Sequence record: PZ386973.1
Length of the DNA stretch: 64,000 nt
Reading direction: 5' to 3' (one strand)
Origin: a phage
Below are positions 29,086 to 60,417 of this stretch, one piece after another. The notes under the pieces were generated by a model, which was not told where the DNA came from, did not search any database, and was given only the letters and a program-made list of their open reading frames with translations. Each line of letters begins with the position of its first letter. Positions within the stretch are counted from its first letter, which is position 1. The translations under genes and the position numbers were made by a program.

Positions 29086-29244
29086 ATGAAACACAAGATA
29101 GCTCAAGTTTTTATGGCATTATGGTGTATGCCAATAGCTATAACAGCATTTAATCTAGATACTCTTACTATAGAAGAAAAATGTATCGGATTAGTTAGCG
29201 GCTTTAGTATGCTGGGCTTATCTTTGCTGTGGTTAAAGAAATAA
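29086..29244 (+). CDS. small hydrophobic membrane protein
   Basis: ATG after AGGAAAG; 52 codons with two hydrophobic segments; the overlapping minus-strand track ORF was rejected. Confidence 0.45.
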   Translation: MKHKIAQVFMALWCMPIAITAFNLDTLTIEEKCIGLVSGFSMLGLSLLWLKK

Positions 29245-29248
29245 TATT

Positions 29249-29323
29249 CTCCGTGTAGCTCAGTTTGGCCAGAGCGTTTCGTTTGGGGCGATAGGGTCGG
29301 GGGTTCAAATCCTCCCACGGAGA
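29249..29323 (+). tRNA. tRNA-Pro (anticodon TGG)
   Basis: Acceptor CTCCGTG/CACGGAG, D-arm GCTC...GAGC, loop TTTGGGG. Confidence 0.65.
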
Positions 29324-29333
29324 CCAAACAATT

Positions 29334-29407
29334 GCGGGTTAGATCTCTGGTAGAGATCGCTAGTCTCATAAGCTAGAAAGAGGTAGGTTCGATTCCTGCA
29401 CCCGCTT
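29334..29407 (+). tRNA. tRNA with CAT anticodon (Met, fMet or Ile2)
   Basis: T-arm GTAGG-TTCGATT-CCTGC, loop CTCATAA; acceptor end pairing ambiguous at position 1. Confidence 0.5.
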
Positions 29408-29430
29408 CCATTTTAATAGAGGATTTCGAA

Positions 29431-29598
29431 ATGAAAGTATTTCGATTAGTAGTAAGTGATAAACGTTTAGGTAAGAATACATCAAAATCCTTACTCGCTC
29501 ATTACGGTAAAAATTGGGATGAAGTAATGGTAGAGTTTAGTACTAATCACCCTTACCTGAAAGTTCACTCTATTAAAGAAGTATACAATGGTTACTAA
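29431..29598 (+). CDS. hypothetical small protein
   Basis: ATG 29431; 55 codons. Confidence 0.4.
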   Translation: MKVFRLVVSDKRLGKNTSKSLLAHYGKNWDEVMVEFSTNHPYLKVHSIKEVYNGY

Positions 29599-29599
29599 T

Positions 29600-29675
29600 A
29601 GATCGCTAGCTCAATAGGTTTAGTAGCATCCGACTTTTAATCGGAAGGTTCTGGGTTCAAGTCCCAGGCGATCTA
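29600..29675 (+). tRNA. tRNA-Lys (anticodon TTT)
   Basis: Acceptor AGATCGC/GCGATCT, anticodon stem TCCGA/TCGGA, loop CTTTTAA. Confidence 0.75.
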
Positions 29676-29696
29676 CCAATTTCAAGAAAAACGCAG

Positions 29697-29725
29697 TTGC
29701 TTGATGCTTAATTTCTTGTTATAAT
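29697..29725 (+). promoter_or_regulatory. early promoter module
   Basis: TTGCTT-N17-TATAAT followed by a GATGAGGATTTCTCCTCATC hairpin. Confidence 0.55.
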
Positions 29726-29963
29726 ATTTATATAAATTGATGAGGATTTCTCCTCATCATAGTTCACTAAGGTATTAGCTCGACCTAGGACTGGCTGCCA
29801 AAAAGCACGATCCCTACGATTCGGGAGAAGTTCTAGATTAGTCCACTAGATTCAGCGGCAACTGAATAGTGTATCGGGTTTGCGAGATGACGTAGTTCCT
29901 TCCGCTCGAAGCGAAGGTGCTGTAGTTACGCCGAGCTAATAGCCTTAGTAAATTAAAGAATTT

Positions 29964-30039
29964 GGGGGATGGGTCTGCTAGGAGTGGACACCTCGCTTGC
30001 ACCGAGGACATCAGAACGATTCGAATTCGTTATCCTCCA
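29964..30039 (+). tRNA. tRNA-Ala (anticodon TGC)
   Basis: Acceptor GGGGGAT/ATCCTCC, anticodon stem CCTCG/CGAGG, loop CTTGCAC. Confidence 0.65.
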
Positions 30040-30047
30040 CCAAATAC

Positions 30048-30121
30048 GCGTGATTGATGGAATGGGCATACATACCGTCCTTAGAAGTCGGGTTTTGAGG
30101 GTTCGAATCCCTTGTCACGCA
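30048..30121 (+). tRNA. tRNA, anticodon read as TAG (Leu-type) on a class I body
   Basis: Acceptor GCGTGAT/GTCACGC, T-arm GAGGG-TTCGAAT-CCCTT, loop CTTAGAA, A73; D-arm pairing unclear. Confidence 0.5.
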
Positions 30122-30236
30122 CCAAATTTGATGGTCAGAGTAAATTAAACCTACTATCTCGGTTGAGCTGTTTTAATGGGTTCGAATCCCAGCGAGGCGT
30201 AACTGCCTGGCGTGATAGAGGCATCATCTTATTATT

Positions 30237-30324
30237 GGAAGAGCAAATCGAATTGGCGACGAAAACCGCTTGGAAAGTGGCTGACTGGTAAAACGGCTTG
30301 AGAGTTCAAATCTCTTCTCTTCCG
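30237..30324 (+). tRNA. tRNA-Ser (anticodon GGA)
   Basis: Acceptor GGAAGAG/CTCTTCC, loop TTGGAAA, long variable arm. Confidence 0.6.
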
Positions 30325-30339
30325 CCAAACAATTTATAT

Positions 30340-30431
30340 GGTAGGTCAATCCAAAGGCTGGCGCTGGACTCCGACTTGAAATCGGTTGATCGTAGTGATA
30401 CGGTGTAAGGGTTCGATCCCCTTACCTACCT
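30340..30431 (+). tRNA. tRNA-Ser (anticodon TGA)
   Basis: Acceptor GGTAGGT/ACCTACC, anticodon stem CCGA/TCGG, loop CTTGAAA, long variable arm. Confidence 0.65.
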
Positions 30432-30439
30432 CCAAATCT

Positions 30440-30570
30440 TGGAATATGCCGGAATTAGTAGACGGGACTGCCGAATAGGTTTACTAGGAACATCCACTCC
30501 TAGAAATATACCTTAAAGGCGGTTGAGATAAATGGTCTATCTCGTGAAGGTTCAAGTCCTTCTATTCCTT
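30440..30570 (+). tRNA. tRNA-like element (Leu-type D-arm, over-length)
   Basis: GCCGGAATTAGTAGACGGG resembles a Leu D-arm; T-arm GAAGG-TTCAAGT-CCTTC; 131 nt, no clean cloverleaf. Confidence 0.3.
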
Positions 30571-30684
30571 GATACATCAATGGCTCAAAGTGTAACGGTG
30601 CTATTTGATGCTCTTGGAAAGACTTTCCCGACAGGCGTTCGGGGGTAAGCTTCTGAGGCTAGAATAGAAGAGTTTCTGAGAGCC

Positions 30685-30804
30685 GCCACAATTGAAAATT
30701 CGTACTCGTCTTGAGCTGCGTGCAATAGGAGATAACTTGATTAGTATTCTAGAACATGCTAATTGAGGATGGTTTCGCTAACCCTGCGAGTTTTCAATTG
30801 TGGC
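30685..30804 (+). ncRNA. candidate structured RNA closed by a perfect 14-bp long-range stem
   Basis: GCCACAATTGAAAA (30685-30698) is the exact reverse complement of TTTTCAATTGTGGC (30791-30804). Confidence 0.35.
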
Positions 30805-30873
30805 TATATCATAATTGGTTAATGATCCTGATTGTGAATCAGGCCTATGTGGATTCGAATTCCACTAGCCACC
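30800..30873 (+). tRNA. tRNA-His (anticodon GTG)
   Basis: Acceptor GTGGCTA/TAGCCAC, anticodon stem CCTGA/TCAGG, loop TTGTGAA, C73. Confidence 0.7.
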
Positions 30874-30901
30874 CCAAATTAACTTAAATAGGAAATAAAA
30901 T

Positions 30902-31099
30902 ATGGCTGATTTCTGCAAACAATGCTCTATTGATATGTGGGGCAGAGATACTGGTGATCTTTCTGGTTTGATTACAGAAGCCGAAGTTAAAGAAGGTTAT
31001 GGTGCAGTTGTGATTTGCGAAGGATGCGGAGTTATTCGAGTGGATCATGAAGGCAAACGTTTAGAAGAGCAGGAAAATTTAGGAGAAACAAATGAGTAA
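30902..31099 (+). CDS. small Cys-rich protein
   Basis: CKQC...CEGCG. Confidence 0.45.
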   Translation: MADFCKQCSIDMWGRDTGDLSGLITEAEVKEGYGAVVICEGCGVIRVDHEGKRLEEQENLGETNE

Positions 31100-31328
31100 T
31101 GCCTTAATTAGTGAAATTATGTTAACACGTCTTGCAGAATTACAAACTCTTCGAGATGAATCTCAGAATAACTTAGCCTACCATAAACAGATGGTAGATA
31201 CTCTTACTACTCGTATTGAAACTTACGAGCGCGATATTGCAGCATTACAAGCCCTTTTCTCTGTGTCAGCACCCGATACGTTAGAACAGCCTCCTGTGTC
31301 TCAGCCGGTAGAAACAGCATCTAGTTAA
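31092..31328 (+). CDS. hypothetical protein
   Basis: Track ORF. Confidence 0.45.
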   Translation: MSNALISEIMLTRLAELQTLRDESQNNLAYHKQMVDTLTTRIETYERDIAALQALFSVSAPDTLEQPPVSQPVETASS

Positions 31329-31337
31329 TAGCATTCT

Positions 31338-31410
31338 TGGAGTGTAGATCAATTGGCAGATCGTCGGCCTCTGACTCCGAAGGTTCCTGGTTCGATCCCA
31401 GGCACTCCAG
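31338..31410 (+). tRNA. tRNA-Gln (anticodon CTG, tentative)
   Basis: Acceptor TGGAGTG/CACTCCA, T-arm CCTGG-TTCGATC-CCAGG, loop CTCTGAC. Confidence 0.6.
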
Positions 31411-31419
31411 CCAAACAAT

Positions 31420-31492
31420 TGGAGAGTAGTGTAACGGTTAGCACAACGGCCTTTGACTCCGTTAATGGTAGGTTCGATTCCTCCTTCTCCAG
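31420..31492 (+). tRNA. tRNA-Gln (anticodon TTG)
   Basis: Acceptor TGGAGAG/TTCTCCA, D-stem GTGT/GCAC, loop CTTTGAC. Confidence 0.6.
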
Positions 31493-31503
31493 CCAAATAA
31501 TAG

Positions 31504-31576
31504 GCGGTTAAGCACACGGGTTGTGTCGCAGGCCTTCCAAGCCTCGCTGAGTAGGGTTCGATTCCCTCTAGCCGCT
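31504..31576 (+). tRNA. tRNA-Gly (anticodon TCC)
   Basis: Acceptor GCGGTTA/TAGCCGC, loop CTTCCAA. Confidence 0.6.
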
Positions 31577-31595
31577 CCAACTTTAAGGAAACGTT

Positions 31596-31847
31596 ATGCA
31601 CGTTTTTGAGTTTCGTAATAAAAGTACCGATAAACGAGTTATTGTTATTGGAGAAACATACCGAGCATACGAACAAACTGACGGCTCTGTTATCCTGAAT
31701 GATGAGAAAGGAGGTTTTAGCTTTTATCCAGAAGAACCTTATGAAGAGTTTCGAAAACAATTTAACCTAGACTGGAGAAAGCATTTAAACACTGTTGCTT
31801 CATCTGTAGTATTGCCAACTACCAGTACTGTACCCCCTAATGGCTGA
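31596..31847 (+). CDS. hypothetical protein
   Basis: Track ORF; the minus-strand track ORF 31281-31760 across the tRNAs was rejected. Confidence 0.45.
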   Translation: MHVFEFRNKSTDKRVIVIGETYRAYEQTDGSVILNDEKGGFSFYPEEPYEEFRKQFNLDWRKHLNTVASSVVLPTTSTVPPNG

Positions 31848-32004
31848 CAACCTAAAAGTAAAGATCGATAAACAAAAGAAACGTGTAGAAGTAGAGATTG
31901 GTGAAGAACGTGTAGCCTTCACCTTTGAATTTCTTCAGCAGTTGGCAATGACAGTTATGACTGATAAGTCTCCTGTTATTGAAAAAGAAATCCCGTTGAA
32001 ATAA
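31840..32004 (+). CDS. hypothetical small protein
   Basis: ATG 31840 overlapping the upstream stop; 54 codons. Confidence 0.4.
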   Translation: MADNLKVKIDKQKKRVEVEIGEERVAFTFEFLQQLAMTVMTDKSPVIEKEIPLK

Positions 32005-32012
32005 CGGGTTTT

Positions 32013-32084
32013 GCTCCTAAAGCATTGCTGGCGATGCAGTTGCCTTGTAAGCATCTGAACCGGGTTCGATTCCTGGTGGGAGCA
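32013..32084 (+). tRNA. tRNA-Thr (anticodon TGT)
   Basis: Acceptor GCTCCTA/TGGGAGC, D-stem GCAT/ATGC, loop CTTGTAA. Confidence 0.65.
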
Positions 32085-32102
32085 CCAAATTTAAAAATTC
32101 AT

Positions 32103-32131
32103 TTGCCTTCTCTCTTATTTATTGTTATAAT
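32103..32131 (+). promoter_or_regulatory. early promoter module
   Basis: TTGCCT-N17-TATAAT. Confidence 0.55.
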
Positions 32132-32161
32132 ATTTATATAAATTAATGAGAGGGAAACCAA

Positions 32162-32455
32162 ATGAAACGTTATCTTTCTGTATTATTCCAAGCTGGTGGT
32201 CAACGCTATACTTACGAATTTCCTAGCTCTTGGAAAATAAAAGAAGGTGATCAAGTAGTAGTGTTAACACCACGTGAAGGGTATAAAGTAGTAACGGTTA
32301 AACAAGTATTTCCAAAAGATCATGAACCGGCTAAAGGCATTCGCTATAAGATGATTCATGGTGTGGTTCGTCAAGTACCACGAGCGGAAGTAGAAATCAG
32401 AGTAGATAAAGATGGTAAACTTAAGTATACTTCTTGCTTAGATGAGTTACTATAA
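32162..32455 (+). CDS. hypothetical protein
   Basis: Track ORF. Confidence 0.45.
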   Translation: MKRYLSVLFQAGGQRYTYEFPSSWKIKEGDQVVVLTPREGYKVVTVKQVFPKDHEPAKGIRYKMIHGVVRQVPRAEVEIRVDKDGKLKYTSCLDELL

Positions 32456-32661
32456 TGAGGATTACTTTCACAGAAAAGATCATGAGTAATGGTGTTATGA
32501 TCATTACCGCATGGGATGGTAATCAGTGGTGTAGTGTTTCAGGTATTAAGCCCGAAGAACAAACACTAGAAAATATCTCAAAGATTAAGCGAAGAATGGC
32601 AGAACGTGCACGACTTCCAGGTGCGCCTAGAAATGGTAAACGTTCTGCAATTAAATGTTAA
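32455..32661 (+). CDS. hypothetical protein
   Basis: Track ORF, ATGA overlap. Confidence 0.4.
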   Translation: MRITFTEKIMSNGVMIITAWDGNQWCSVSGIKPEEQTLENISKIKRRMAERARLPGAPRNGKRSAIKC

Positions 32662-32662
32662 T

Positions 32663-32736
32663 GCTTCGGTAGCTTAGCGATCTAAAGCACTCGGCTGATA
32701 ACCGAGAGATCGGGGGTTTAAATCCCTCCCGGAGTA
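32663..32736 (+). tRNA. tRNA-Ile (anticodon GAT)
   Basis: Acceptor GCTTCGG/CCGGAGT, anticodon stem CTCGG/CCGAG, loop CTGATAA; unusual T-loop TTTAAAT. Confidence 0.6.
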
Positions 32737-32835
32737 CCAAATTTAGGAATTAAGACTATGCGTCCAGGAAAGTTTAAAAAAGCTAATTGGTCTAAAGAGT
32801 ATAAAGAATACTTACTTAGTCTAATAAAACATAAT

Positions 32836-32908
32836 AGTTAGTTGGCAGAGTGGTTATGCACCTCCTTCATACGGAGCGACTACAGTGGTTCAAATCCACT
32901 ACTAACTA
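32836..32908 (+). tRNA. tRNA with CAT anticodon (Met or Ile2)
   Basis: Acceptor AGTTAGT/ACTAACT, loop TTCATAC. Confidence 0.6.
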
Positions 32909-49482: not shown

Positions 49483-49835
49483 AATCTCATAGATTAAAAA
49501 CAACTCTTGTTTTGAACTCTAGGGGCGATGATTATTACACTTAGTATTACGTCTATACGTTGCGACAGCACGAGTATAGATCTAATTACTAAGTCTTCCG
49601 TAATACTCACGCGCCCCACGAGTAAGCTCTCATGAAATGGGGGGACTATTTACTTTTAAAATATATGAAAATATTTAAAGGCAATATCTGTGTTCAAGAT
49701 GGTACACCTGTTGCCGCTCTTCTGCTAGGATGGCACAACACTTTCTTCTAGACTCCTAAGTTTATCACGAAATACCACACTTCTAGTGGGCGGTTCTCCT
49801 AAGTTTCTAGGAACATATACTAGGCGGTTAATACA

Positions 49836-49880
49836 GGGCGGTTATAGGGAGGGCGGTTATAGGGAGGGCGGTTATTTCTA
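49836..49880. repeat. tandem repeat, 3 copies of GGGCGGTTAT(A)GGGA
   Basis: Three adjacent copies read directly. Confidence 0.8.
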
Positions 49881-49917
49881 GAAGACATTTTTTGAAAACA
49901 CATTTCCAGAAATTACT

Positions 49918-50517
49918 GTCGGATTTGCACACTGCATTTCTAGAAATTTATGGTCGGATTTGCACAAACGCCTAAGTTTTTAGGAACATATAATCTCTTG
50001 AAAATAGCAGCATTATTTCGGGCCGAAGGCCCATGATTGCCTGAGTTTTTAGAGCCACAGAAATTTTCCCTTGTCAAGCTATTTTGCCACATTTAGCTAA
50101 TAAAATTTTACTTTTTCTGCACCTATCTCAAATCTTCTCCAATTATCTCAACTCTTCCCCAAAATCCCGGCAAATCTGGTGCTCCGCACCAACCATGCGC
50201 CCACATCCCTCTAGTCCCCAAAATTTCTTCGTTCTCTCAACTTCTCTCCAAACCTATACAATCACACACCCTCTAATCGAAGTCATAAAAATCTTGTCGG
50301 ATTCGCACATCTTAATCCTAGAAAAACCGTGTCGGATTTGCACATACCCCACAGGATTCGAACGCAGTTCGTGATTGCTGGAGTTTTTGGGAAAATTCAT
50401 TGTCGGATTCGCACACTATAAAAATTTTTAGGGTCGGATTTGCACACTACCAAAAATTGTCGGATTCGCACATACACGCCAGCACGTAACCCGTGGAGCA
50501 AATGTCGGATTTGCACA
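49918..50517. repeat. iteron array: 8 direct copies of GTCGGATT(T/C)GCACA
   Basis: Copies at 49918, 49963, 50296, 50331, 50402, 50433, 50459, 50504, all same orientation. Confidence 0.85.
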
Positions 50518-50522
50518 AAAGC

Positions 50523-50700
50523 GCAGGGCAATTGCCCTGCTAGTTTGAATGCGAATAAAAATGAGAATCATTATCATTTAAAAAGCGGAATGCGAATGAG
50601 AATCATTATCATTTACGAAAGGGAATGAGAACTATTCAGGAAGTGAAACGATTCTCATTTAGATAGTGAAATGCGAATGATAATGATTCGCATTTAAAAA
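50523..50700. repeat. 18-bp palindrome GCAGGGCAATTGCCCTGC plus direct and inverted copies of a GAATGCGAATGAGAATCATTATCATTTA unit
   Basis: Palindrome 50523-50540; repeat copies around 50547-50615 and inverted or palindromic copies 50646-50696. Confidence 0.75.
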
Positions 50701-50727
50701 CGGAAGTGAGAAACACTGTTATTTAAG

Positions 50728-50819
50728 TTATCCACAGACTTATCAACAGCACGATTTGACTTGACAAAATCCTAGCCATTTTGAGGCGTTATTAACAGAC
50801 TTATCCACAGCTTATCCTA
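50728..50819. promoter_or_regulatory. cluster of DnaA-box-like 9-mers (TTATCCACA and variants)
   Basis: TTATCCACA at 50728 and 50801; variants TTATCAACA, TTATTAACA, TTATCCTAC. Confidence 0.6.
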
Positions 50820-50835
50820 CTGTATAAATATACAG
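50796..50835. repeat. left arm of a 40-bp inverted repeat (partner 54682-54721)
   Basis: CAGACTTATCCACAGCTTATCCTACTGTATAAATATACAG; reverse complement matches the right arm at 39 of 40. Confidence 0.8.
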
Positions 50836-50986
50836 TATTCCTACGCAGTGAATAGTTCTAATATAGCGTTAAAACGTCCTAGATCGCATTCTAACGCGTT
50901 TAATTTTGGTGGGGATACTAAAACAAGGGGGTATTTATCTGGAGGGAGAAAAACGGGGATCAGATCCCCGTCGATTATTAGAAAAG

Positions 50987-51100
50987 AGGGCAATTATCCC
51001 GCTTTGCCATTTCGCGCCACTCATCCTGATGCCTAGACTTGCGACGGCGTACTAAAAACCGTTTATACCAGTGATTAAACCATCGTTTCATAAATCCTCC
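50987..51100 (-). CDS. small basic protein
   Basis: ATG after GAGGAGG; 37 codons; below track threshold. Confidence 0.3.
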
Positions 51101-51291
51101 TCAGGTAGTCGATGCGTGATCTTCTCCTCTTCCCCATAGGAATCGACCAAATGTTGATAATAACCATCGGCATCATAAATCACTTTATCATATTCGCCAC
51201 GCTCGACCGCTTGCCGATTCTCAGGTGTATCCGGCACATAGAAAACATCAACCATTGTGGTAGTTTTGGTCACAATAATTTTATTGCTCAT
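51088..51291 (-). CDS. hypothetical acidic protein
   Basis: Track ORF. Confidence 0.4.
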   Translation of the reverse strand: MSNKIIVTKTTTMVDVFYVPDTPENRQAVERGEYDKVIYDADGYYQHLVDSYGEEEKITHRLPEEDL

Positions 51292-51514
51292 AATAACGCT
51301 CCGTTATTAAAAATCCCCATATATTCCCGGCCAAATTTTACTAGTAACATAAGTTACTATCCCGGCAACAATTACGCTATAAACTATTAATAAGGTAAAC
51401 ATTAAACCAGACATAATAACTCCTAGTAAATATATTTTTGCCAATAGTGGCGAACGTTATCGCCACCAGCGGAATCATTAGCTGCCTCAGCATTACCAAC
51501 GAAAATATATAATC

Positions 51515-51874
51515 TCATTGTGCCACCTTTCGGAATGCTGTTTCAATACTATCCGCAGTGGATTGAATATATGCGCCTTTCATTATCAGGCGCTCAGTGC
51601 ACACCTTACGGAAGATATTAATAAAATCATCTTCATTTTCTGCGATTAATGCCTCCCCCATGACCTGAATATCACAAGATGCGAAAGTCAAAAATTGAAA
51701 CGCTAGTTCACGGGCAACGACCGCATTGATTTTATAATGCGCCTTGCCCTCATAAATATTAATAACGCCCTTGTAAGCCGGGGAAAGCTGATTTAAGTAG
51801 TTTGCTAACACTGCCGGACGGCAATTAGTAACAAAGCGATTGCCTTCATAAATTATCATTTGCATAGCTCCCAA
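51515..51874 (-). CDS. hypothetical protein
   Basis: Track ORF. Confidence 0.45.
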   Translation of the reverse strand: MGAMQMIIYEGNRFVTNCRPAVLANYLNQLSPAYKGVINIYEGKAHYKINAVVARELAFQFLTFASCDIQVMGEALIAENEDDFINIFRKVCTERLIMKGAYIQSTADSIETAFRKVAQ

Positions 51875-52101
51875 ATAGTTCCGCCGATAATCATTAGCTG
51901 ACTAATGATTATCAGAATAAAACCGATTGAAGGCAGGACGCCCCAATATTGGAACGCCCTTTTAATTTGTTGAATCATTTGTTAGCCTCCCAATTAGATA
52001 GCCAGATAATAACATAAAGATCCCCAGTAAAAGGGGATCATTTTTAAATAAGGTGGCGGTAAAACCGCCAACCATTGCAAGGGTAATAATAATAACGCTT
52101 T

Positions 52102-52314
52102 TCATAGTACCCCACGAAAGGCCGCGTAAAAGGTGGCAAAGTGTTTAACCGTTTCAGCGATCACGTTGCCGCGCTTATCAAATTTCTTTTCGGTAACACG
52201 AAAGGCATTTTTGTTACGTGCTACATATTCGATTTTACAATCAGGACGCTCAAACGTGTTTACATCCACCAGCTTAAAGCCTTTCGAACGTGCAAGAGAA
52301 ACGTTGCGAATCAT
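52102..52314 (-). CDS. hypothetical basic protein
   Basis: Track ORF. Confidence 0.4.
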   Translation of the reverse strand: MIRNVSLARSKGFKLVDVNTFERPDCKIEYVARNKNAFRVTEKKFDKRGNVIAETVKHFATFYAAFRGVL

Positions 52315-52317
52315 TTT

Positions 52318-52470
52318 TTATTCTCCTTTACTAGTCATGCAGCCCAGCAGATAAGAAAATGCAGCGATACCCGCGCCAATAATAACCGCGTGGACACCGA
52401 AAGCTATTGCAAAAAGGGATAAAATAGCGCCCAAGATACCTGCTAGAATAGCTCGAAAAATAACCATTTT
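52318..52470 (-). CDS. small hydrophobic membrane peptide
   Basis: 50 codons, two hydrophobic segments; one of several sub-threshold TM mini-ORFs between 51303 and 52470. Confidence 0.35.
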   Translation of the reverse strand, partial: KMVIFRAILAGILGAILSLFAIAFGVHAVIIGAGIAAFSYLLGCMTSKGE

Positions 52471-52513
52471 CATTCTCCTAGTTAGTGGGGCGAAAGTAAC
52501 GCCCCATTATTAA

Positions 52514-52746
52514 TTACATTAAAACAATTTTAGCGGCTTGTTTTTTGGTGCAATGTTCCGCTTTCAGGGTATCCAGCAAAAAGCCAGCCGTTTGCTGATC
52601 GATTTTATCGGCATTATATAGTTCCTGAATGGTGTTATAGGTTTTAGCAATGCCGAACTCCTGCACCATTTCATGAATGATGACGCGATTAGATACCCAA
52701 CCTTGCGCGGTGAACAGATGACTAGCAGAAGAATATGCAACCATTT
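52514..52746 (-). CDS. hypothetical protein
   Basis: Internal ATG with GGAGG RBS. Confidence 0.4.
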
Positions 52747-52811
52747 TAAGCCTCCAAATTTTTGGGAAAATTTTCAACCGTCCTCAAACGGTGTAAAGGC
52801 ATTATAACAAA

Positions 52812-52838
52812 AAAGGCCGCCATAATAGGCGGCCTTTA
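52812..52838 (-). terminator. intra-operon terminator/attenuator hairpin
   Basis: AAAGGCCGCCATAATAGGCGGCCTTT with a T-run on the minus strand. Confidence 0.45.
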
Positions 52839-52850
52839 CAAAACTTTACA

Positions 52851-53345
52851 TTAAACTACTTGTAAGGATTCAACATTGAAACATCGTTTTAATTCGTCAT
52901 GCAAAACAGCGTATTCCTCCCATCGGGTACTATCAGGAATATAAACAAGCTGTTTTAATCGGTTTGCATATATTACCGCTTTGTTATCAATTATCTCGAC
53001 GCCACCATATTTAATAACTAATTTCATGACGGAATTAATAGGATCGCCGCCGTTTACATATGTGCCGGACTTACTCAATTGATAATGATAAAGGCTTGCA
53101 TACACGTTGTCATTTTCAACCCATTCGCCAGTATCCTCATCTTCATACCCATCGCTACCAAAACGAGAAGCATTATCAATAGCCATTTCCTGAGCGAAAG
53201 CGTCGAGATCTGTACCAGCAGGAACAAAATATTCTTCGGTGTTCCCTTCCCCGCAGTACCCAGTATGGCAATCGACCAAAATGATCATATCGTGTTTTGC
53301 CGTGCTCACTTCTCCCAGTGAGAAGCCATATTTTTCCTCAGCCAT
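52851..53345 (-). CDS. hypothetical acidic protein
   Basis: Track ORF. Confidence 0.5.
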   Translation of the reverse strand: MAEEKYGFSLGEVSTAKHDMIILVDCHTGYCGEGNTEEYFVPAGTDLDAFAQEMAIDNASRFGSDGYEDEDTGEWVENDNVYASLYHYQLSKSGTYVNGGDPINSVMKLVIKYGGVEIIDNKAVIYANRLKQLVYIPDSTRWEEYAVLHDELKRCFNVESLQVV

Positions 53346-53410
53346 TTATTATCCTCCTATTAATTAATCAGGGAATAGTAAAGCGGGGAAACAATCCCCG
53401 CTAGATATTA

Positions 53411-54415
53411 TTATTCGCTTTCGGTGCTAGTGGTGAAGGTAGAAATATCGATACCTTTTACCATTTCATCAATCATTTCAGCGATGTTAAAACTTTGCAC
53501 CATTTCCAACATTGCCGCTTCCATAGCTGCCCCTGCTACCGCTTTCGCTTTCTGATTGCTTGGGGCATACTGGTCAACCGCTACGCTCAGCAGGTTGGCA
53601 ATTACTACTCGACCAATCGGCGTATCAATATAACCTTTAATCATGAACGGTGCTTTTTTAGCCGCTACTTTCGTAATTTGAGTCAGTGCAATTTTACCCG
53701 CTTCCAGTTTTGCAGCGTTTACAACAGCGGATTTATTAGCGGCAACAATATTAGCGATCTTGGTCATAGTATTTTTTCCTTTGTTTTCAGTAGTTTGAGT
53801 ATTAACGCTTTGAGTGTTAGAATTTACAACATGGTTTTCTGTATTGTCAACTGGTTTTAGCGTAAATCCAGCATTTGCAACATTTGATTCATTCCCATAC
53901 TCTAAATAATCGCTAGGGATCAACATGTTACCCGTTGACTTTTCAAAACACAAAACACCAGTTGTTTCTATTGCGTAACTATCCGCACCTTTATAGTTTG
54001 ATGATAGTTCACGCCAGATACTATTTAGTAACGATTCGACACTATCAAGCCTGATATTATTTATTTTTGTTGCTATTACCTGCTCTTTTTCTTGCACGTT
54101 ATATAATCGCGCAATGTAACCATTATTCGGCTCACTGTAACCAACAATGATAAAATCAATATCAGTTCCCCGACTGTTACGGAAAACGTGATAATCACGG
54201 TTGAAAATTACTAGTACCCTTGTCTGGTCTAGTAGTAATATGAAATCATTGACTGAATAATGAGTATCATTACTGTCTAAAATTTCATCATGAATCTTTT
54301 CAACCATGCTAGCGGTATGTTGTACACTTGCCGCGCTACTACCATCTAGCAGGTTGCGCAAACTACCCTTTACAATAGTTGCGTTTGCTGGTACTGCAAT
54401 TCTAGTAAAAGACAT
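53411..54415 (-). CDS. hypothetical two-domain protein with low-complexity linker
   Basis: Track ORF; first gene of the minus-strand cassette. Confidence 0.5.
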   Translation of the reverse strand: MSFTRIAVPANATIVKGSLRNLLDGSSAASVQHTASMVEKIHDEILDSNDTHYSVNDFILLLDQTRVLVIFNRDYHVFRNSRGTDIDFIIVGYSEPNNGYIARLYNVQEKEQVIATKINNIRLDSVESLLNSIWRELSSNYKGADSYAIETTGVLCFEKSTGNMLIPSDYLEYGNESNVANAGFTLKPVDNTENHVVNSNTQSVNTQTTENKGKNTMTKIANIVAANKSAVVNAAKLEAGKIALTQITKVAAKKAPFMIKGYIDTPIGRVVIANLLSVAVDQYAPSNQKAKAVAGAAMEAAMLEMVQSFNIAEMIDEMVKGIDISTFTTSTESE

Positions 54416-54681
54416 TCTCTTGTCTCCCTCGTTAATCGGTGAGTGAATGATAAAGGTATTTTCTTTCTAGGGGCAAATATTATTTTACCTTTTTATTTTC
54501 CTTGCCTAACGCCTAGTTTTATGCTAACCGCGCAGCGGTGCAATAAAGAGCAAACCACGGCGAAGCCACCAGGCCGACGCATCGAGGCTTTACTTTAATA
54601 TTACCCCACCGCATTTAGCTCGTTAGAAAGCGTTTTAGGCGGCCTAAAATTGATTGCAGTTGTTAACACTACCTTTTTACC

Positions 54682-54721
54682 CTGTATATTTATACAGTAG
54701 GATAACCTGTGGATAAGTCTG
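54682..54721. repeat. right arm of the 40-bp inverted repeat (partner 50796-50835)
   Basis: CTGTATATTTATACAGTAGGATAACCTGTGGATAAGTCTG. Confidence 0.8.
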
Positions 54722-54789
54722 TGTAAAACTCCTTATATCGCCGCCTATCGTGTCAAATTATTTTGTGCTGTGGATAACGTTGTGGATAA
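54699..54789. promoter_or_regulatory. cluster of DnaA-box-like 9-mers (TGTGGATAA orientation)
   Basis: TGTGGATAA at 54708, 54769, 54781; TAGGATAAC at 54699. Confidence 0.6.
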
Positions 54790-55150
54790 CTTAAATGATA
54801 GTGGTTCTCACTTAGGCCGATAGTTTCTTATAGTTATTATTTCTATCGGTTACGATTTCTTATAATTATTATTTCTCACTAATTTATATGTATATTATAT
54901 ATTATAGAATAGTTAGTTGGCTAATGAGATTTTCCGTGATTAATAGTCTGCTAATAGTTTAAGCCGTTACAATCCACCAGCATGATTATCATCCTAGCAA
55001 TTATTAGTCTGCTATCTTTCCGATGCATACTAACAAATAAAAGTCAATTAATTTAGTTCATAAAATAAGTAGTTATCCACTGGAAAATAAAAGTCAAGTG
55101 GATAACTAGGAAAATTTCATTTTTGCTTTTGGGGATAAGTTATCAACAAG
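54790..55150. promoter_or_regulatory. AT-rich region with an inverted DnaA-box pair (origin-like)
   Basis: Long A/T-rich tracts; TTATCCACT at 55073 and AGTGGATAA at 55097; no ORF. Confidence 0.4.
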
Positions 55151-55493
55151 GCTAGAATGCGCCTAAAACGCCCTAGAATGCGATGAAAGTTTTAGTCATG
55201 CCATTGCATTGCCTACCCTCGTTTATCTCTACCACGAGCTTTTTAGGTTTTGTCAAGTAGGGCAAAGCAAATATAAATGAAAAAATTACTTGCCTATCTG
55301 CTATGTTTTGTGGTATTCGCGCGCCCGTTTCTTTTAATTTTAGTGCGCCGCGCCCAGGTCGCCGCACGCCGTCCGGTGAATCGTGTCTTTACATTTCTTT
55401 ACAAAAATAAGGTTGCGCCATTTTCGGGAATCCCCTATTATTTATCACGTAGGGCGGCAATGACGAACTACACGGCGGGAAGTTTACCGCCAC

Positions 55494-55532
55494 GCTCTTT
55501 AAAAATTGGGTACATCTTAAAGCCTATCGGCG
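55494..55532. repeat. left arm of an imperfect inverted repeat flanking ORF 55564-55767
   Basis: TGGGTACATCTTAAAGCCTATCGGC core; partner 55773-55813. Confidence 0.65.
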
Positions 55533-55563
55533 GTAAACTTATACATTATAAGGAATCGACGAT

Positions 55564-55767
55564 ATGAAACAAACTTTATTGATCACTGGCAAGCCTAGCA
55601 AGGCACTAGATAGCAAAACAAAAAATTTGTTGACAGTAGCGCAAAGATCGGTAAAATACCGATTCAAGCAATACAAGAAAGGCCGCCAGCAAGGTCTAGA
55701 AATGATCTGGCGAAATATTATGATTGACTTGAAAGAAAATCATAAAAAATCTCAAAAAATTGTTTGA
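55564..55767 (+). CDS. small basic protein flanked by inverted repeats
   Basis: Track ORF; AAGGA RBS; Lys/Arg-rich. Confidence 0.4.
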   Translation: MKQTLLITGKPSKALDSKTKNLLTVAQRSVKYRFKQYKKGRQQGLEMIWRNIMIDLKENHKKSQKIV

Positions 55768-55772
55768 CAACC

Positions 55773-55813
55773 TAGCCGATAGGTTTTAAGATGTACCCAG
55801 TTCGATAAGAGCG
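55773..55813. repeat. right arm of the inverted repeat flanking ORF 55564-55767
   Basis: GCCGATAGGTTTTAAGATGTACCCAG core. Confidence 0.65.
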
Positions 55814-55997
55814 ATAACTTGATAAAATTTGACGGTCGGTGCTTACCATAATGCATCCCGCCCCCTAACTGGGATATAGCGGCCTACGTGGAGTTCTTTA
55901 AATTGATTTAACTGGCGAGCGGATTGTTACTTATTACCTGCTACTGTTTTCTAGCAGGTAATGCGGAACAATCCTCAAATAACTAGGAGTTTATATT

Positions 55998-56249
55998 ATG
56001 CAAAACGTTATCACCGCGCCGAAAGTTGGTCAGTCTGTTTTTATTCCTTTCGTTACCAAAACGGATGAATTAACCGGAAAGGCCGAACGTATTAAAGGTG
56101 CGGCGCTTATGCCGTTTGATACAATCGACGCGGTATATGCTGAAAATGAACGCAGTAACAACGGCAAACCCGTTTTTAACGTTCGTGTTAAATCCGGCGA
56201 CGTTGTAAAGGTTGTTCAACGCAACGAAAAATGGGAAGCTGTATTATAA
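55998..56249 (+). CDS. hypothetical protein
   Basis: Track ORF after AGGAG. Confidence 0.45.
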   Translation: MQNVITAPKVGQSVFIPFVTKTDELTGKAERIKGAALMPFDTIDAVYAENERSNNGKPVFNVRVKSGDVVKVVQRNEKWEAVL

Positions 56250-56350
56250 TCTAGTGTTAACTTTATATTCCCCTGAAATATGGGGAATATAACGATTAAC
56301 ATTAAGTTAATCATTAAATCCCTTAAATTAAACAAATAGGAGTTTTTACC

Positions 56351-56758
56351 ATGACTAACGTTAAAACCGCAAAATTCGCTTGGAATGAAGAAAACACTCA
56401 GAAAGCTGTTTCTATGTACCAGCAGTTAATCAATGAAAACGGTTTAGATTTCGCAAATAGTGACGGCCTGAAAGAAATTGCAAAAGCAGTTGGCGCGGCT
56501 TCTCCCGTATCCGTTCGGTCAAAATTGACCAGCGCGAAAGCGTATCAGAAAAGCGATAAGCCGCGCAAAGTTGGCGGTGGTAGCTCAATCCGCAAAGCGC
56601 ATTATGTACGCGTTATTGCTAAACATGCTATTGATTCCGGCATTATCAAAGACGCCGATGATCTGGCAAGCCTTGAAAGTGCTAAACTTGAAACGCTGGA
56701 CGCCGTGGCGCAACTGTTAGGCGTTGCCGATGAAGTGAAACAAGCCGCAGGAGAATAA
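56351..56758 (+). CDS. pre-early-region protein, possible A2 counterpart
   Basis: Track ORF after AGGAG; sits immediately upstream of the A1-like gene; assignment by position and size only. Confidence 0.4.
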   Translation: MTNVKTAKFAWNEENTQKAVSMYQQLINENGLDFANSDGLKEIAKAVGAASPVSVRSKLTSAKAYQKSDKPRKVGGGSSIRKAHYVRVIAKHAIDSGIIKDADDLASLESAKLETLDAVAQLLGVADEVKQAAGE

Positions 56759-56846
56759 TTATATACATTGCCCTTCCTAGTGGGAGGGCAATAATATAAC
56801 TGTTTAGCGATAGTTATTTTCTTCCCTTAAATCAGGAGTTTTAAAA

Positions 56847-57044
56847 ATGATTTTCTTTCCTACTGAGTCATTAATTTTAGGCTTGTTTATTATGGCGGCC
56901 TCGTTATTACTCGCTTATTTTCAAAATGATTTAGATTCATATTATTTTAAACGTAAATCTAAGTTAGCAAAGCGTTTAGGTCTGATTTGTTTTATTGCCG
57001 CCGTTGCTTGTGGTGTTAGTTCTAGCCTTATGCCTTTAAATTAA
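56847..57044 (+). CDS. small membrane protein
   Basis: Track ORF with hydrophobic helices. Confidence 0.3.
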   Translation: MIFFPTESLILGLFIMAASLLLAYFQNDLDSYYFKRKSKLAKRLGLICFIAAVACGVSSSLMPLN

Positions 57045-57118
57045 TGTTGCAAATTATAACGCCTATTATTCAAGGCGTTATATTTGGCAATATTGCCGTT
57101 ATTAACTTAATCCCTTTA

Positions 57119-58798
57119 ATGGAGTTTATTACTATGATTATTTCCGCAGAAAAACAAACCGTTATCCTGAAAATGGCCGCTGACTTTAATTTCTATGGTA
57201 AACGTCTGCGCGCCACTAAACTGGAGGTCTGCGACGATATATCAAAAGCGGTCTACGATACAACAAAACACTCGACCGCTATCTGCGACTGGCTGGAAGC
57301 AAATAAACCAGTTAAACCGAAAGCGGCGAAAGTAGCAAAAGCCATTAAAAACGATGAGCGTCCAGAAGCGGCGGGGATTGTTTCTAGCACGGTTGAACAG
57401 TGGGAAGTAAAACAAGGCAAACGCTTTATTATTACGTCGATTCAGAATAATACTTTCCCGCATAAAAACTTTTTAGCCTCATTGGAAAAATTCGCTGAAT
57501 ATATCGGTGCTGATTTGCTTGTTTCTAAGTATATTTATAATAAAAACGGCTTCCAAAATGGCGAGGGTGCGGATGGAATCAAATATGATTCCGCGTTCGA
57601 TAAATATATTTGCAGCAAAAACGTGTTTTTAAATAACCGCCGTTTTGCTTTCATGGCTGAAATTAATGTTTTGCCAACAGCAGACTATCCGCTTTCTGGA
57701 TTCGCTGAAACTGCAACGGCGCTTAATCTGGAAGGTCTGGCAATCGGTCATGCTAAAATCACCGCTGAAAGCGTGCCAGCTCTCAAAGGTGAAGTAGTAC
57801 GCCGCATGTATTCAACCGGAACGGCAACGCTCAAAAACTACATTCAGCAGAAAGCAGGGCAAAAAGCGGAAGCGCTTCATAACTTTGGTGCGCTGATTGT
57901 CGAGTTCGACGAGGACGGGGAGTTTTTTGTTCGCCAGCTTGAAACTATGGATGAAAGCGGGGTGTTTTATGATCTGAATGTTTGCGCTACTCCCGCCGGA
58001 TGCTATGAAACAACGGGGCATGTTTTAGGCTTGCAATATGGTGACATACACGCCGAAAAATTGGATGATGATTGTGCCGTTGCGTCATGGGCTGGCGAAA
58101 ATAGCTTGCTTGATATTCTTAAACCAAAATATCAGTTTGTGCATGATGTGCATGATTTTACATCGCGCAACCATCACAACCGCGCTTCGGGTGTATTCCT
58201 AGCAAAACAATATGCCGCCGGACGTGATAAAGTTCTGGATGATCTTATCGATACGGGGCGCGTGCTGGAATCGATGGAACGAGATTTTAGCCAAACAATC
58301 ATTGTTGAATCTAATCACGATCTGGCGCTATCCCGCTGGCTTGATGATCGTAATGCTAACATTAAAGACGATCCAGCAAACGCGGAACTATATCACCGCC
58401 TGAATGCCGAGATTTATGGAGCTATTGCAGAAAAAGACGATACTTTCAACGTGCTAGATTATGCATTGCGCAAGGTTGCAGGTTGTGAGTTTAACGCCAT
58501 TTTCCTAACAACTGACCAATCATTTAAAATTGCAGGCATCGAGTGTGGCGTACACGGTCACAACGGCATTAACGGCAGCCGTGGCAATCCTAAACAATTT
58601 AAGAAATTGGGCAAATTGAACACCGGACACACTCACACCGCCAGCATTTACGGCGGGGTATATACCGCTGGCGTTGCTGGTAGTCTCGATATGGGTTACA
58701 ACGTTGGCGCGTCAAGCTGGACGCAAACGCATTTAATTACCTATGCAAACGGGCAGCGCACTTTGATCGATTTTAAGAATGGTAAATTCTTTGCGTAA
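57119..58798 (+). CDS. A1: A1-like pre-early protein with metallophosphoesterase domain
   Basis: GDIHA, GHNG and GHTHT metallophosphatase motifs; about 555 aa from the internal ATG; matches T5 A1 as recalled. Confidence 0.6.
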   Translation: MEFITMIISAEKQTVILKMAADFNFYGKRLRATKLEVCDDISKAVYDTTKHSTAICDWLEANKPVKPKAAKVAKAIKNDERPEAAGIVSSTVEQWEVKQGKRFIITSIQNNTFPHKNFLASLEKFAEYIGADLLVSKYIYNKNGFQNGEGADGIKYDSAFDKYICSKNVFLNNRRFAFMAEINVLPTADYPLSGFAETATALNLEGLAIGHAKITAESVPALKGEVVRRMYSTGTATLKNYIQQKAGQKAEALHNFGALIVEFDEDGEFFVRQLETMDESGVFYDLNVCATPAGCYETTGHVLGLQYGDIHAEKLDDDCAVASWAGENSLLDILKPKYQFVHDVHDFTSRNHHNRASGVFLAKQYAAGRDKVLDDLIDTGRVLESMERDFSQTIIVESNHDLALSRWLDDRNANIKDDPANAELYHRLNAEIYGAIAEKDDTFNVLDYALRKVAGCEFNAIFLTTDQSFKIAGIECGVHGHNGINGSRGNPKQFKKLGKLNTGHTHTASIYGGVYTAGVAGSLDMGYNVGASSWTQTHLITYANGQRTLIDFKNGKFFA

Positions 58799-58851
58799 TT
58801 AAATTATTCCCTAGCGGCTTGAAATATAGCCGCTATTACAGGAGTCAAAAA

Positions 58852-59109
58852 ATGAAAGTTACATTACCCAAAACATTGGACGAAAAAGTATTCATTTCAC
58901 CGGATGAAATGGAATCTGATAAAGTTTACAGCTTCGGGCCTATCCTAGCCGCCAAAACTAATACGGATGGAATTATTACAGTCGATTATCGTGATAATGA
59001 TGTTGTCCCCTTTGACGATGATGACGCTTTTTATGAATGGTTGAGCGATAATAATTTACCCGTAAATGGTGAATTAACGCCGTATCAAATGCAAATTATT
59101 ATTAAATAA
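58852..59109 (+). CDS. hypothetical acidic protein
   Basis: ATG 58852 after CAGGAG. Confidence 0.4.
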   Translation: MKVTLPKTLDEKVFISPDEMESDKVYSFGPILAAKTNTDGIITVDYRDNDVVPFDDDDAFYEWLSDNNLPVNGELTPYQMQIIIK

Positions 59110-59147
59110 ATTAAATCCCCTATTAAACTAATTGGAGTTTTATAAAT

Positions 59148-59540
59148 ATGAAAAAGCAAAATATCCCATTCGATCGCGCTCAGTCCTCAATTGTTCTGGT
59201 TTATTCTAATGGCGAACGTTACCACGTCGAGGCGGGGCATGTTATTGATGACCTATTAGATTTCAATGACGCTGTGCAGGTTACTACCTTTGCCTATACA
59301 CAAGGCAAACTAACCAGCCATATTAAGGCAAAAGGCGTTTATGTTGACACGGTGAAACAAGAAACGATTATCATCGATGCCGTAAAATCCGGCCTAGCCT
59401 TTGCAGTTGTCGCGCCTTGCCTCGCTTGCCTTGATGATCAATTGATTAGTGCAAAGGTCTACACATGTGCGGGGATTCGTTCTAGCGTATCCGGTGAGGA
59501 TGTTAGTTTTATCGCTGATGCGTTGGCTTATGGTCTTTAA
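59148..59540 (+). CDS. hypothetical protein
   Basis: Track ORF. Confidence 0.45.
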   Translation: MKKQNIPFDRAQSSIVLVYSNGERYHVEAGHVIDDLLDFNDAVQVTTFAYTQGKLTSHIKAKGVYVDTVKQETIIIDAVKSGLAFAVVAPCLACLDDQLISAKVYTCAGIRSSVSGEDVSFIADALAYGL

Positions 59541-59627
59541 TAGTTGATTGAACACAGCCCGCTGATAAAGTATCATTAGTGGGCTGGATTGAATTAACTT
59601 AATCCCTTAAATGGAGAATGCAACAAA

Positions 59628-60362
59628 ATGAATCAAGTTAAAACGAATATTACCCGTAATTTCCCGCATATTTCCCGCGTTATGATTTGGGATCTGGACG
59701 GCACTATCATTAATTCTTTCCATCGTGTAGCGCCTTGTTTTGATAGCGAGGGCAATTTAGATTTAAATAAGTATAAAAATGAAGCCTGCAAACATCATTT
59801 AATAATGCAGGATTCATTATTGCCATTAGTTGAATATATGCGCCAGTGCATGAATGACGCTAACACGCTAAACATTATTTGCACCGCTCGACTAATGAGC
59901 AAATCAGATTATTATTTCTTGCGTAAACAAGGATTGCGAGGGCGTGGAAATAGTAATATCCGCGTGTTTTCCCGCGATACCCTGCACAAATACTTTAAAG
60001 CTGATAAGGTTAGCGAAATATACCACAGCAAGGACGCAGTATATAAAAGCCATTATTTTGAATTATTTAAACAATTATATCCGAACGCTGATTTTACAAT
60101 GATTGATGATCATAAAGGCGTGTTAGCGGCGGCGGCATCATACGGATTTAAAACGCTAGACGCGCAAGCCGTTAATGATATTCTATCAATCGGTGTTACA
60201 TTGATTGGTGAAACCTTTATTGATGAATCGCTCGACGATGATAATGATTATCAGTTCCTGGCCGACCGCCTGCAATTATGTTGGGAAGGTATGACCGAGG
60301 AAGAACGCGCAGAATATAGTTGCAGCCCGCAACAATATATTGAGAAATTAAAAGTTGCGTAA
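59628..60362 (+). CDS. dmp: HAD-family 5'-deoxyribonucleotidase-like protein
   Basis: MIWDLDGTIINS (DxDGT motif I); 244 aa; matches T5 dmp as recalled. Confidence 0.6.
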   Translation: MNQVKTNITRNFPHISRVMIWDLDGTIINSFHRVAPCFDSEGNLDLNKYKNEACKHHLIMQDSLLPLVEYMRQCMNDANTLNIICTARLMSKSDYYFLRKQGLRGRGNSNIRVFSRDTLHKYFKADKVSEIYHSKDAVYKSHYFELFKQLYPNADFTMIDDHKGVLAAAASYGFKTLDAQAVNDILSIGVTLIGETFIDESLDDDNDYQFLADRLQLCWEGMTEEERAEYSCSPQQYIEKLKVA

Positions 60363-60380
60363 TAATTAAAGTTGAAATAG

Positions 60381-60417
60381 TTTCATCCTGCAATTAAAAT
60401 GGTTGCAGGATGAAACA
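60381..60417. terminator. bidirectional terminator hairpin
   Basis: GTTTCATCCTGCAA...TTGCAGGATGAAAC 14-bp stem between convergent genes. Confidence 0.55.

Follow-up and report, generated by a model that had tools for sequence, protein, structure and literature searches.

A variant of the T5 pre-early operon with unstudied accessory genes in phage sequence PZ386973.1

The pre-early DNA of T5-like phages has been assigned more functions than it has identified genes: host shut-off; protection against restriction, clustered regularly interspaced short palindromic repeat (CRISPR) systems, and RecBCD; and control of the two-step injection. In the T5 annotation, genes T5.011 to T5.017 (NC_005859, positions 6495 to 9157) lie inside the left terminal repeat (LTR), in the first-step-transfer (FST) DNA that "enters host cell first" and ends at the injection stop signal. 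According to the literature on T5 and Bas33, expression takes place within the first minutes and is then shut off in an A1-dependent manner. Mahata et al. (2021) cloned T5.002 to T5.017 and found 008, 011, and 015 to be toxic; T5.015 binds Ung and nicks Ung-generated abasic sites, arresting replication and division (PMC8201957). In a 2026 preprint, Annor et al. reported toxicity for dmp, A1, hdi, hegG, 011, 013, and 015; expression of 011, which "resists functional predictions," disorganized the nucleoid, expression of 013, the sole toxic protein with two transmembrane (TM) segments, gave lysed-looking cells, and a T5 mutant lacking hegG to 017 was viable with smaller plaques (bioRxiv 10.64898/2026.04.02.716235). 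Here, we analyze a 64,000-nucleotide (nt) stretch of phage DNA, sequence record PZ386973.1 (the window, meaning this whole stretch), and describe an operon at 54476 to 50952 on its minus strand that, judged from protein similarity and gene order, is the orthologue of T5.011 to T5.017. It is the known T5-type pre-early operon in a variant form that carries several unstudied accessory genes.

When all T5 pre-early proteins were compared with the window (tblastn), 011, 012, 013, 014, 015, and 017 mapped in order to the minus strand between 54403 and 51091, with 61, 84, 67, 99, 92, and 96% identity, respectively. T5.009, hdi, 007, A2, 005, A1, 002, and dmp mapped to the plus strand between 55460 and 60359 with 87 to 99% identity, the neighboring A1, A2, and dmp being 95 to 99% identical to T5. 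The T5 pre-early proteins without a match in the window were hegG, T5.003, and T5.016 beyond its first 19 residues, all of which T5 has; the remaining ones followed the T5 order. Gene order, strand logic, promoter, terminators, and neighbors are common to the two operons. They differ in that the window carries genes for p164, p47, p40a, and p35, four proteins that T5 lacks; p31 and p37 exist in T5 too, where they are unannotated. A megablast search with positions 50500 to 55000 matched 531 phage records, nearly all from T5-like phages of Escherichia, Salmonella, and Klebsiella, and the nearest relative of the window was the Tequintavirus Salmonella phage phB7 (95% identity). The homologous region lies inside an annotated LTR or direct terminal repeat in T5, MM-1, pork29, and Kenya-K37, the genome ends themselves not being visible in the window.

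The operon is flanked on one side by the injection stop signal and on the other by the divergent hdi-A2-A1-dmp operon. Beside it, the noncoding DNA at 49500 to 50850 is a field of repeats with eight copies of TGTCGGATT(T/C)GCACA, three tandem 15-nt copies of AGGGCGGTTATAGGG (49835 to 49879), and several long inverted repeats; two paired DnaA-box motifs are found at 50727 to 50750 and 50788 to 50811. This repeat field matches descriptions of the T5 injection stop signal, as far as its sequence features go. A sequence-only reading of the window had argued from the position of the operon beside A1-like and dmp-like genes that it falls in the region that T5-like phages inject first. That positional argument was correct, given the mapping of the T5 genes, with the divergent hdi, A2, A1, and dmp and the conserved 011 promoter, and given the stop-signal-type repeats and DnaA boxes that adjoin the operon; the comparison with the pre-early region of T5 that the same reading had proposed gave matching order and identities of 61 to 99%. 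We put at roughly 0.88 the probability that the operon is the right-hand pre-early one of a T5-like phage (Tequintavirus) and belongs to the ~10 kb of DNA injected first.

Twelve open reading frames (ORFs) in the operon are supported as genes; in order of transcription they encode 334, 164, 76, 49, 70, 47, 40, 114, 31, 35, 67, and 37 amino acids (aa). For selection tests, the window was compared with 36 related loci from IMG/VR. The ratio of nonsynonymous to synonymous variation (pN/pS) was 0.07 to 0.26 in the proposed frame of the 334-, 164-, 76-, 49-, 70-, 114-, and 67-aa ORFs and ~1 to 7 in the other two frames. Eight of the 12 supported ORFs match PHROG families, and these matches agree with the orthology and gene order of T5.011 to T5.017. 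The view that none of the proteins shows a recognizable family motif was therefore wrong, given these eight matches, a Pfam DUF7566 match in the 334-aa protein, and the orthology of the 114-aa protein to a characterized enzyme. Apart from DUF7566, scans of all operon ORFs against Pfam, NCBIfam, and PADLOC returned nothing; sequence and profile searches of PDB chains with the 011, p164, 015, 014, and 012 proteins gave no credible match, and an Rfam scan of the window found only its tRNA cluster, with no element in the operon. Neither homology to housekeeping proteins nor a lack of conservation or expression, any of which would have told against a takeover cassette, was seen, given the conservation described here and the experiments on T5 orthologues.

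A sigma-70 promoter for the operon was predicted by promoter scan at 54447 to 54476 on the minus strand (-35 TTGCCC, 18-nt spacer, -10 TATCAT), with an A-rich block in front of it. Among the window, T5, phiLLS, and MM-1, the 160-nt stretch upstream of the 334-aa gene has a mean identity of 91%, with both hexamers conserved, and this promoter region coincides with the annotated T5 promoter at 6411 to 6489, upstream of T5.011. Three hairpins, all on the minus strand, punctuate the operon. Just past the 334-aa stop, one at 53382 to 53402 (free energy [dG] -15.7 kcal/mol, z score -3.7) is weakly terminator-like, with a poor T tail. A strong rho-independent terminator follows the 164-aa stop at 52812 to 52837 (dG -19.7 kcal/mol, z score -4.4, then a T run); by alignment, it is the element that T5 annotates directly after T5.011, so that, relative to T5, the p164 gene lies between 011 and the terminator of 011. 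The third hairpin, at 50952 to 50972, closes the operon (ACGGGGATC-TGA-GATCCCCGT, then TTTTT; dG -13.5 kcal/mol). By position, without aligning sequences, it probably corresponds to the annotated T5 terminator at 9275 to 9296, which begins ~10 nt past the end of the T5 copy of p37.

Directly after the T run of the strong terminator lies TGTTATAAT (52801 to 52809, minus strand), a candidate promoter with a perfect extended -10, whose sequence does not differ among the window, T5, Eps7, and phB7. Host RNA polymerase may thus transcribe two units in the first minutes, one that starts at the 011 promoter, covers the 334-aa and 164-aa genes, and stops at the strong terminator and the other from the invariant extended -10 through 012 to p37 and the final terminator, with A1 expected to shut off pre-early expression later.

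The 114-aa gp015-like protein (51515 to 51859, minus strand; phrog_4379, E = 1e-63; pN/pS 0.09) has the same length as T5.015 (AAS77062.1) and 92% identity to it over residues 1 to 114. The 114-aa protein is the orthologue of T5.015, an Ung-dependent endonuclease acting on apurinic/apyrimidinic (AP) sites, and its activity would follow by orthology, binding and nicking having been shown on T5.015 itself. A PDB search found no solved homologue of this family.

In many genomes, RefSeq, and phrog_4227, the label [quoted passage not shown] sits on the 70-aa T5.014 family instead. The gene list of Mahata et al., T5.002 to T5.017, skips 001, 004, 006, and 010, the numbers that dmp, A1, A2, and hegG have in NC_005859 (PMC8201957), and Annor et al. 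also use NC_005859 numbering, in which 013 is the two-TM protein (bioRxiv 10.64898/2026.04.02.716235). UniProt places the AP-endonuclease name on the 114-aa T5.015 (AAS77062.1) and has the 70-aa protein under the name "ORF015," from a different T5 record. Taken together, the two numberings and the UniProt names indicate that the nickase function belongs to the 114-aa T5.015 (T5 positions 8300 to 8644) and that the label has most likely slipped by one gene, to T5.014 (8086 to 8298); the "ORF015" name is the likely source of the shift. The 70-aa protein was nontoxic in both T5 screens (PMC8201957; bioRxiv 10.64898/2026.04.02.716235). The mislabel now gives the wrong gene the "Ung nickase" name in hundreds of phage records.

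The first gene of the operon encodes the 334-aa gp011-like protein (53411 to 54415, minus strand; phrog_4263). Its DUF7566 match is full length (E = 1.4e-132; 442.8 bits against a gathering cutoff of 27; model positions 3 to 336 of 336), and its homologues are limited to T5-like phages. In this protein, a Q/N/S/T-rich linker joins an N-terminal alpha/beta domain, which is variable, to a helical C-terminal domain that is nearly invariant. It is an Epseptimavirus-type allele (87 to 88% identity, compared with 61% to T5.011). Against T5, the 189-residue N-domain is 39% identical (pS 0.69, pN 0.42), whereas the C-terminal 119 residues are 97% identical, with ordinary synonymous divergence (pS 0.36), pN of 0.015, and pN/pS of 0.04. 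This contrast in identity indicates a variable domain joined to a strongly constrained one, and 011 is thus made up of two modules, an N-domain that has been swapped and a C-domain that hardly varies. In MM-1 and in one further related locus (L013), the last 77 residues are encoded by an ORF of their own. An AlphaFold2 model of the 334-aa protein was confident for the N-domain (residues 1 to 189; predicted local distance difference test 76 to 94) and of low confidence for the C-terminal helices, and no fold relatives were found among solved structures. The name "DNA N-6-adenine methyltransferase" carried by many 011 homologues is unsupported, as no methyltransferase domain is recognizable. A PD-(D/E)XK nuclease reading of the N-domain, suggested on inspection by strand order and the invariant D87, was dropped because no conserved (D/E)xK follows D87.

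A role in host takeover, for which the operon had been put forward as a candidate, is supported by the T5 orthologues, since 011 and 013 are toxic and 015 is an Ung-dependent nickase. If the orthologues behave alike, the 114-aa protein would bind host Ung and nick Ung-made abasic sites, leading to arrest of replication and division; the 334-aa DUF7566 protein would be toxic and would disorganize the nucleoid; and the 013-type two-TM peptide would damage the envelope. The products would then be small, mostly dispensable effectors, each hitting a different host process (DNA, nucleoid, or membrane) before the remaining genome enters.

Several points weigh against this account. The experimental data come from T5 orthologues and not from the phage of the window, and 9 of the 12 ORFs have no known activity in any phage. 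The N-domain of the 334-aa protein is a different allele, which leaves room for a phenotype that differs from that of T5.011, the toxic, nucleoid-disorganizing member of DUF7566. Toxicity of 013 was seen in one T5 study and not in the other. The second promoter, at TGTTATAAT, that may drive the 012-to-p37 suboperon is proposed from sequence only, and p31 and p35 are only modestly supported as genes. Since T5 lacking hegG to 017 is viable, any advantage that the operon gives outside laboratory strains is unproven.

The other core genes, all on the minus strand, encode small proteins. The gp012-like protein (76 aa; 52514 to 52744; phrog_5145) is 84% identical to T5.012 (pN/pS 0.16). The basic (+8) gp014-like protein (70 aa; 52102 to 52314; phrog_4227) is the most conserved protein of the operon, with 99% identity to T5.014 and pN/pS of 0.07. 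The acidic (-8) gp017-like protein (67 aa; 51088 to 51291; phrog_6973) is 96% identical to T5.017 (pN/pS 0.12). The gp013-like membrane miniprotein (49 aa; 52318 to 52467; phrog_5607), hydrophobic over residues 1 to 45, is 67% identical to T5.013, which has a 10-residue loop insert; the orthologue in the window is a shorter allele without it. All 16 variants of the gp013-like ORF are intact.

Between the 334-aa gene and the strong terminator lies p164 (52851 to 53345, minus strand; phrog_6741), with a net charge of -17 over 164 aa. Although missing from T5, p164 is widespread in Demerecviridae (345 phage records, including Eps7 and T5-like phages of Klebsiella), and relatives were detected by fold in phages of Pectobacterium, Pantoea, and Vibrio. 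In Klebsiella phage Roth37, the homologue again follows the 011 homologue; the position right after 011 is conserved across genera. A profile search found only 32 family members among 1.8 billion cluster representatives, none of them informative. The family is conserved around glycine-rich motifs, and most of the 32 relatives have a CxxC...CxxC insert (zinc ribbon) that the window copy lacks. A confident structure model of p164 matched no solved structure, known DNA mimics included. Like the acidic DNA mimics T7 Ocr and ArdA, p164 is early expressed, small, and strongly acidic, but it has no sequence or fold similarity to them, and its presence does not track restriction resistance. Roth37 shows two further features: between 011 and the p164 homologue there is a second, unrelated 164-aa acidic protein (net charge -16), and its 011-, p164-, and 015-like genes (2861 to 10351) are codirectional with and upstream of hdi-A2-A1, not divergent from them.

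The charge and position of p164 bear on the rival explanation that survives best, namely, that the chief role of the cassette, or of individual genes in it such as those for the acidic p164 and gp017-like protein or the very highly conserved basic gp014-like protein, is antidefense and that they constitute the pre-early protector against restriction, CRISPR, or RecBCD after first-step transfer. An antidefense role of the operon is possible, and we consider this stronger form of it unlikely. Tequintaviruses resist restriction-modification (R-M) of types I, II, and III unless sites lie in FST DNA (PMC10644984; bioRxiv 10.1101/866236), which implies an FST-encoded protector of the second-step DNA; the literature infers that this function acts against both restriction and CRISPR. 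A net charge of -17 is in keeping with DNA mimics, the operon genes are dispensable in a laboratory strain, as is usual for accessory counterdefense genes, and in its FST part the window shows avoidance of common restriction sites, which demonstrates that restriction pressure acts on FST DNA. However, searches of PHROGs, PADLOC, Pfam, and PDB sequences found no similarity to known antirestriction or defense families, and the three orthologues with a phenotype damage the host rather than block its defenses. The phyletic pattern also argues against this explanation. Epseptimaviruses are more R-M sensitive than Tequintaviruses (PMC10644984), yet the Epseptimavirus Eps7 carries 011, p164, 012, 013, 014, 015, p31, and 017, all of the core genes among them, while R-M-resistant T5 lacks p164. 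Gene presence or absence therefore fails to explain the difference in sensitivity, and p164 was rejected as the antirestriction factor of Tequintavirus. Allelic differences, or roles against other defenses, may be involved.

As to the sites themselves, positions 50850 to 60400 were compared with positions 1 to 49400. The former contain no EcoRI, EcoRV, HindIII, BamHI, PstI, SalI, or EcoKI site, and all eight EcoP1 sites (AGACC) there are in one orientation (0 versus 8, compared with 33 versus 29 elsewhere), an arrangement that would evade type III restriction.

The related loci share a constant set of core genes and differ at three junctions. The 011/012 slot holds nothing, p164, or p164 plus a 102- to 113-aa protein. 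The 014/015 slot, which draws on three mini-TM families, holds nothing (T5), p47, p40a, both (window), or a third, 35-aa TM peptide. The 015/017 slot has at least seven small ORF families, four of them hydrophobic: it holds nothing, p31, p31 plus p35 (window and MM-1), a 52-aa or a 53-aa two-TM peptide, a 45-aa tail-anchored peptide, T5.016, or soluble proteins of 66 to 71 aa. Inserted short genes in the 014/015 and 015/017 slots carry their own ribosome-binding sites (RBSs), and several retain an ATGA junction with the neighboring gene.

In the window, these minigenes are all on the minus strand. The 47-aa p47 (51962 to 52105; phrog_19184) has two hydrophobic segments, is joined to the upstream stop by ATGA, and occurs in about half of the related loci, always open in its own frame only. 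The 40-aa p40a (51856 to 51978; RBS GGGAGG) has a single TM segment, and diverged intact copies (65 to 87% identity) are found in three related loci. After 015 comes the nonhydrophobic p31 (51423 to 51518; RBS AAGGTGG; phrog_22819), coupled by ATGA to the 015 stop; it has exactly 31 codons in nine of nine variants, including one at 71% identity, and is probably coding, although its codon-position signal is weak (10, 7, and 13 variable sites at positions 1, 2, and 3). The 35-aa p35 (51307 to 51414; RBS TAGGAG), with a single TM segment, is the sole open frame in its stretch. Among the loci fetched, it is shared only with MM-1, where it is annotated as a gene, and its support is weaker because only two variants are known. 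The last gene encodes the basic (+8) 37-aa p37 (50978 to 51091; RBS GAGGAGG), with an ATGA overlap and with the closing hairpin and T run directly behind it; it is full length in 63 phage records, including T5 (9154 to 9264). The T5 reference counts the p37 stretch as part of the injection stop signal.

These hypervariable slots probably take interchangeable cassettes of ~100 to 500 nt, encoding mini membrane or acidic proteins, that tune the operon to particular hosts. A further-reaching proposal, which we hold to be doubtful but worth stating, is that they are dedicated exchange sites that would trade at least eight families of 30- to 55-aa membrane peptides, together with acidic proteins, as host-specific counterdefense, exclusion, or envelope modules. 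On the same tentative footing, p164 would be a Demerecviridae-wide pre-early effector, usually with a zinc ribbon and with neither a solved-fold match nor relatives outside T5-like phages, that has gone unstudied only because T5 lost it.

Alternatively, the mini membrane peptides might serve the phage at the envelope, resealing or modulating the injection channel in the transfer pause or mediating superinfection exclusion, rather than killing the host. The operon has four TM miniproteins, and at least eight such families exist across its relatives, all on first-injected DNA; the A1 protein and FST DNA have been reported to be membrane associated. Being swapped in and out as accessory genes is a pattern that other phage exclusion genes follow as well. 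We nevertheless think this explanation improbable, more so than the antidefense one. T5.013, the only member tested and unrelated to the families of p47, p40a, and p35, causes lysis-like damage when expressed alone; T5 lacks p47, p40a, and p35, yet has normal two-step transfer; and Pfam and PHROG searches revealed no homology of the mini membrane peptides to known exclusion or immunity proteins.

A Shine-Dalgarno (SD)-like motif lies upstream of every supported ORF, and starts and stops overlap as ATGA at the 70/47, 40/114, 114/31, and 67/37 junctions and by 17 nt at the 47/40 junction. Variable sites concentrate at the third codon position (7, 7, and 39 at positions 1, 2, and 3 of the 70-aa ORF; 12, 5, and 24 for the 49-aa ORF; 0, 3, and 9 for the 40-aa ORF; and 2, 1, and 9 for the 37-aa ORF). 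ATG-started ORFs of 30 to 60 codons with a TM stretch and an SD motif numbered three in 1.2 kb, compared with a mean of 0.06 in 500 dinucleotide shuffles. It is therefore very improbable that the ORFs of 31 to 47 aa are chance open frames in T-rich spacer DNA: despite their short length, the lack of a PHROG family for p40a, p35, and p37, the two variants of p35, and the weak signal of p31, an SD motif lies before each, ATGA coupling is present in most, third-position bias is seen in p40a, p37, and gp013, diverged yet intact copies exist, the proposed frame is the only one open across variants (the p31 module, in which the frame of T5.016 is likewise open, being the exception), and the small ORFs were independently annotated as genes in phB7 and MM-1.

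One ORF reported in the sequence-only reading does look like such an artifact. The 40-aa TTG-started ORF at 51377 to 51499 was rejected, as it runs in a different frame over p31 and p35 and position 2 is its most variable codon position. That frame is the one in which the N terminus of T5.016 is annotated (T5 8681 to 8938), over a conserved p31 ORF; T5.016 may therefore start, by inspection, at a Met 8 nt past the p31 stop. Two other candidates were rejected as genes, a 33-aa ORF at 51075 to 51176 (pN/pS 1.8) and a 50-aa ORF at 50841 to 50993 (pN/pS 1.2, never intact across loci). The earlier description of a minus-strand operon with overlapping starts and stops was borne out, the genes being tightly packed where it had placed them. 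Its sizes held for the 334-, 164-, 70-, and 67-aa proteins; its 119-aa protein has 114 aa, since its ATG at 51859 forms an ATGA with the preceding stop and the alignments to its PHROG family and to T5.015 begin there, and its 77-aa protein (listed as an 87-aa ORF) has 76. A listed 51-aa ORF was likewise refined to 49 aa. Four of the five hydrophobic minipeptides that had been counted are well supported (49, 47, 40, and 35 aa), and the fifth is most likely an out-of-frame artifact; two small nonhydrophobic ORFs, the 31-aa one and the basic 37-aa one, had been overlooked.

The novelty implied for the locus was overrated. Knowledge of this region goes back decades, hundreds of genome annotations include it, and studies in 2021 and 2026 took it apart experimentally. 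The window adds no new kind of system. It sharpens the pre-early parts list by showing which small ORFs are under selection, and it picks out p164 as a widely conserved pre-early protein absent from the model phage T5. These findings would not surprise a T5 specialist; they are useful for choosing targets in antidefense and toxicity screens.

Elsewhere in the window, 22 tRNA genes are clustered at 20792 to 32908 on the plus strand (Rfam), which is typical of T5-like phages. The A1 ORF at 57044 to 58798 has 584 aa, and its match to T5 A1 (556 aa, 95% identity) starts at 57134; translation of A1 probably begins 30 codons past the first ATG. Three records named as "Listeria phage" or "Campylobacter phage" (OR846838.1, OR848837.1, and MG065692.1) carry near-identical T5-like pre-early sequence and are probably contaminant or misassigned contigs.

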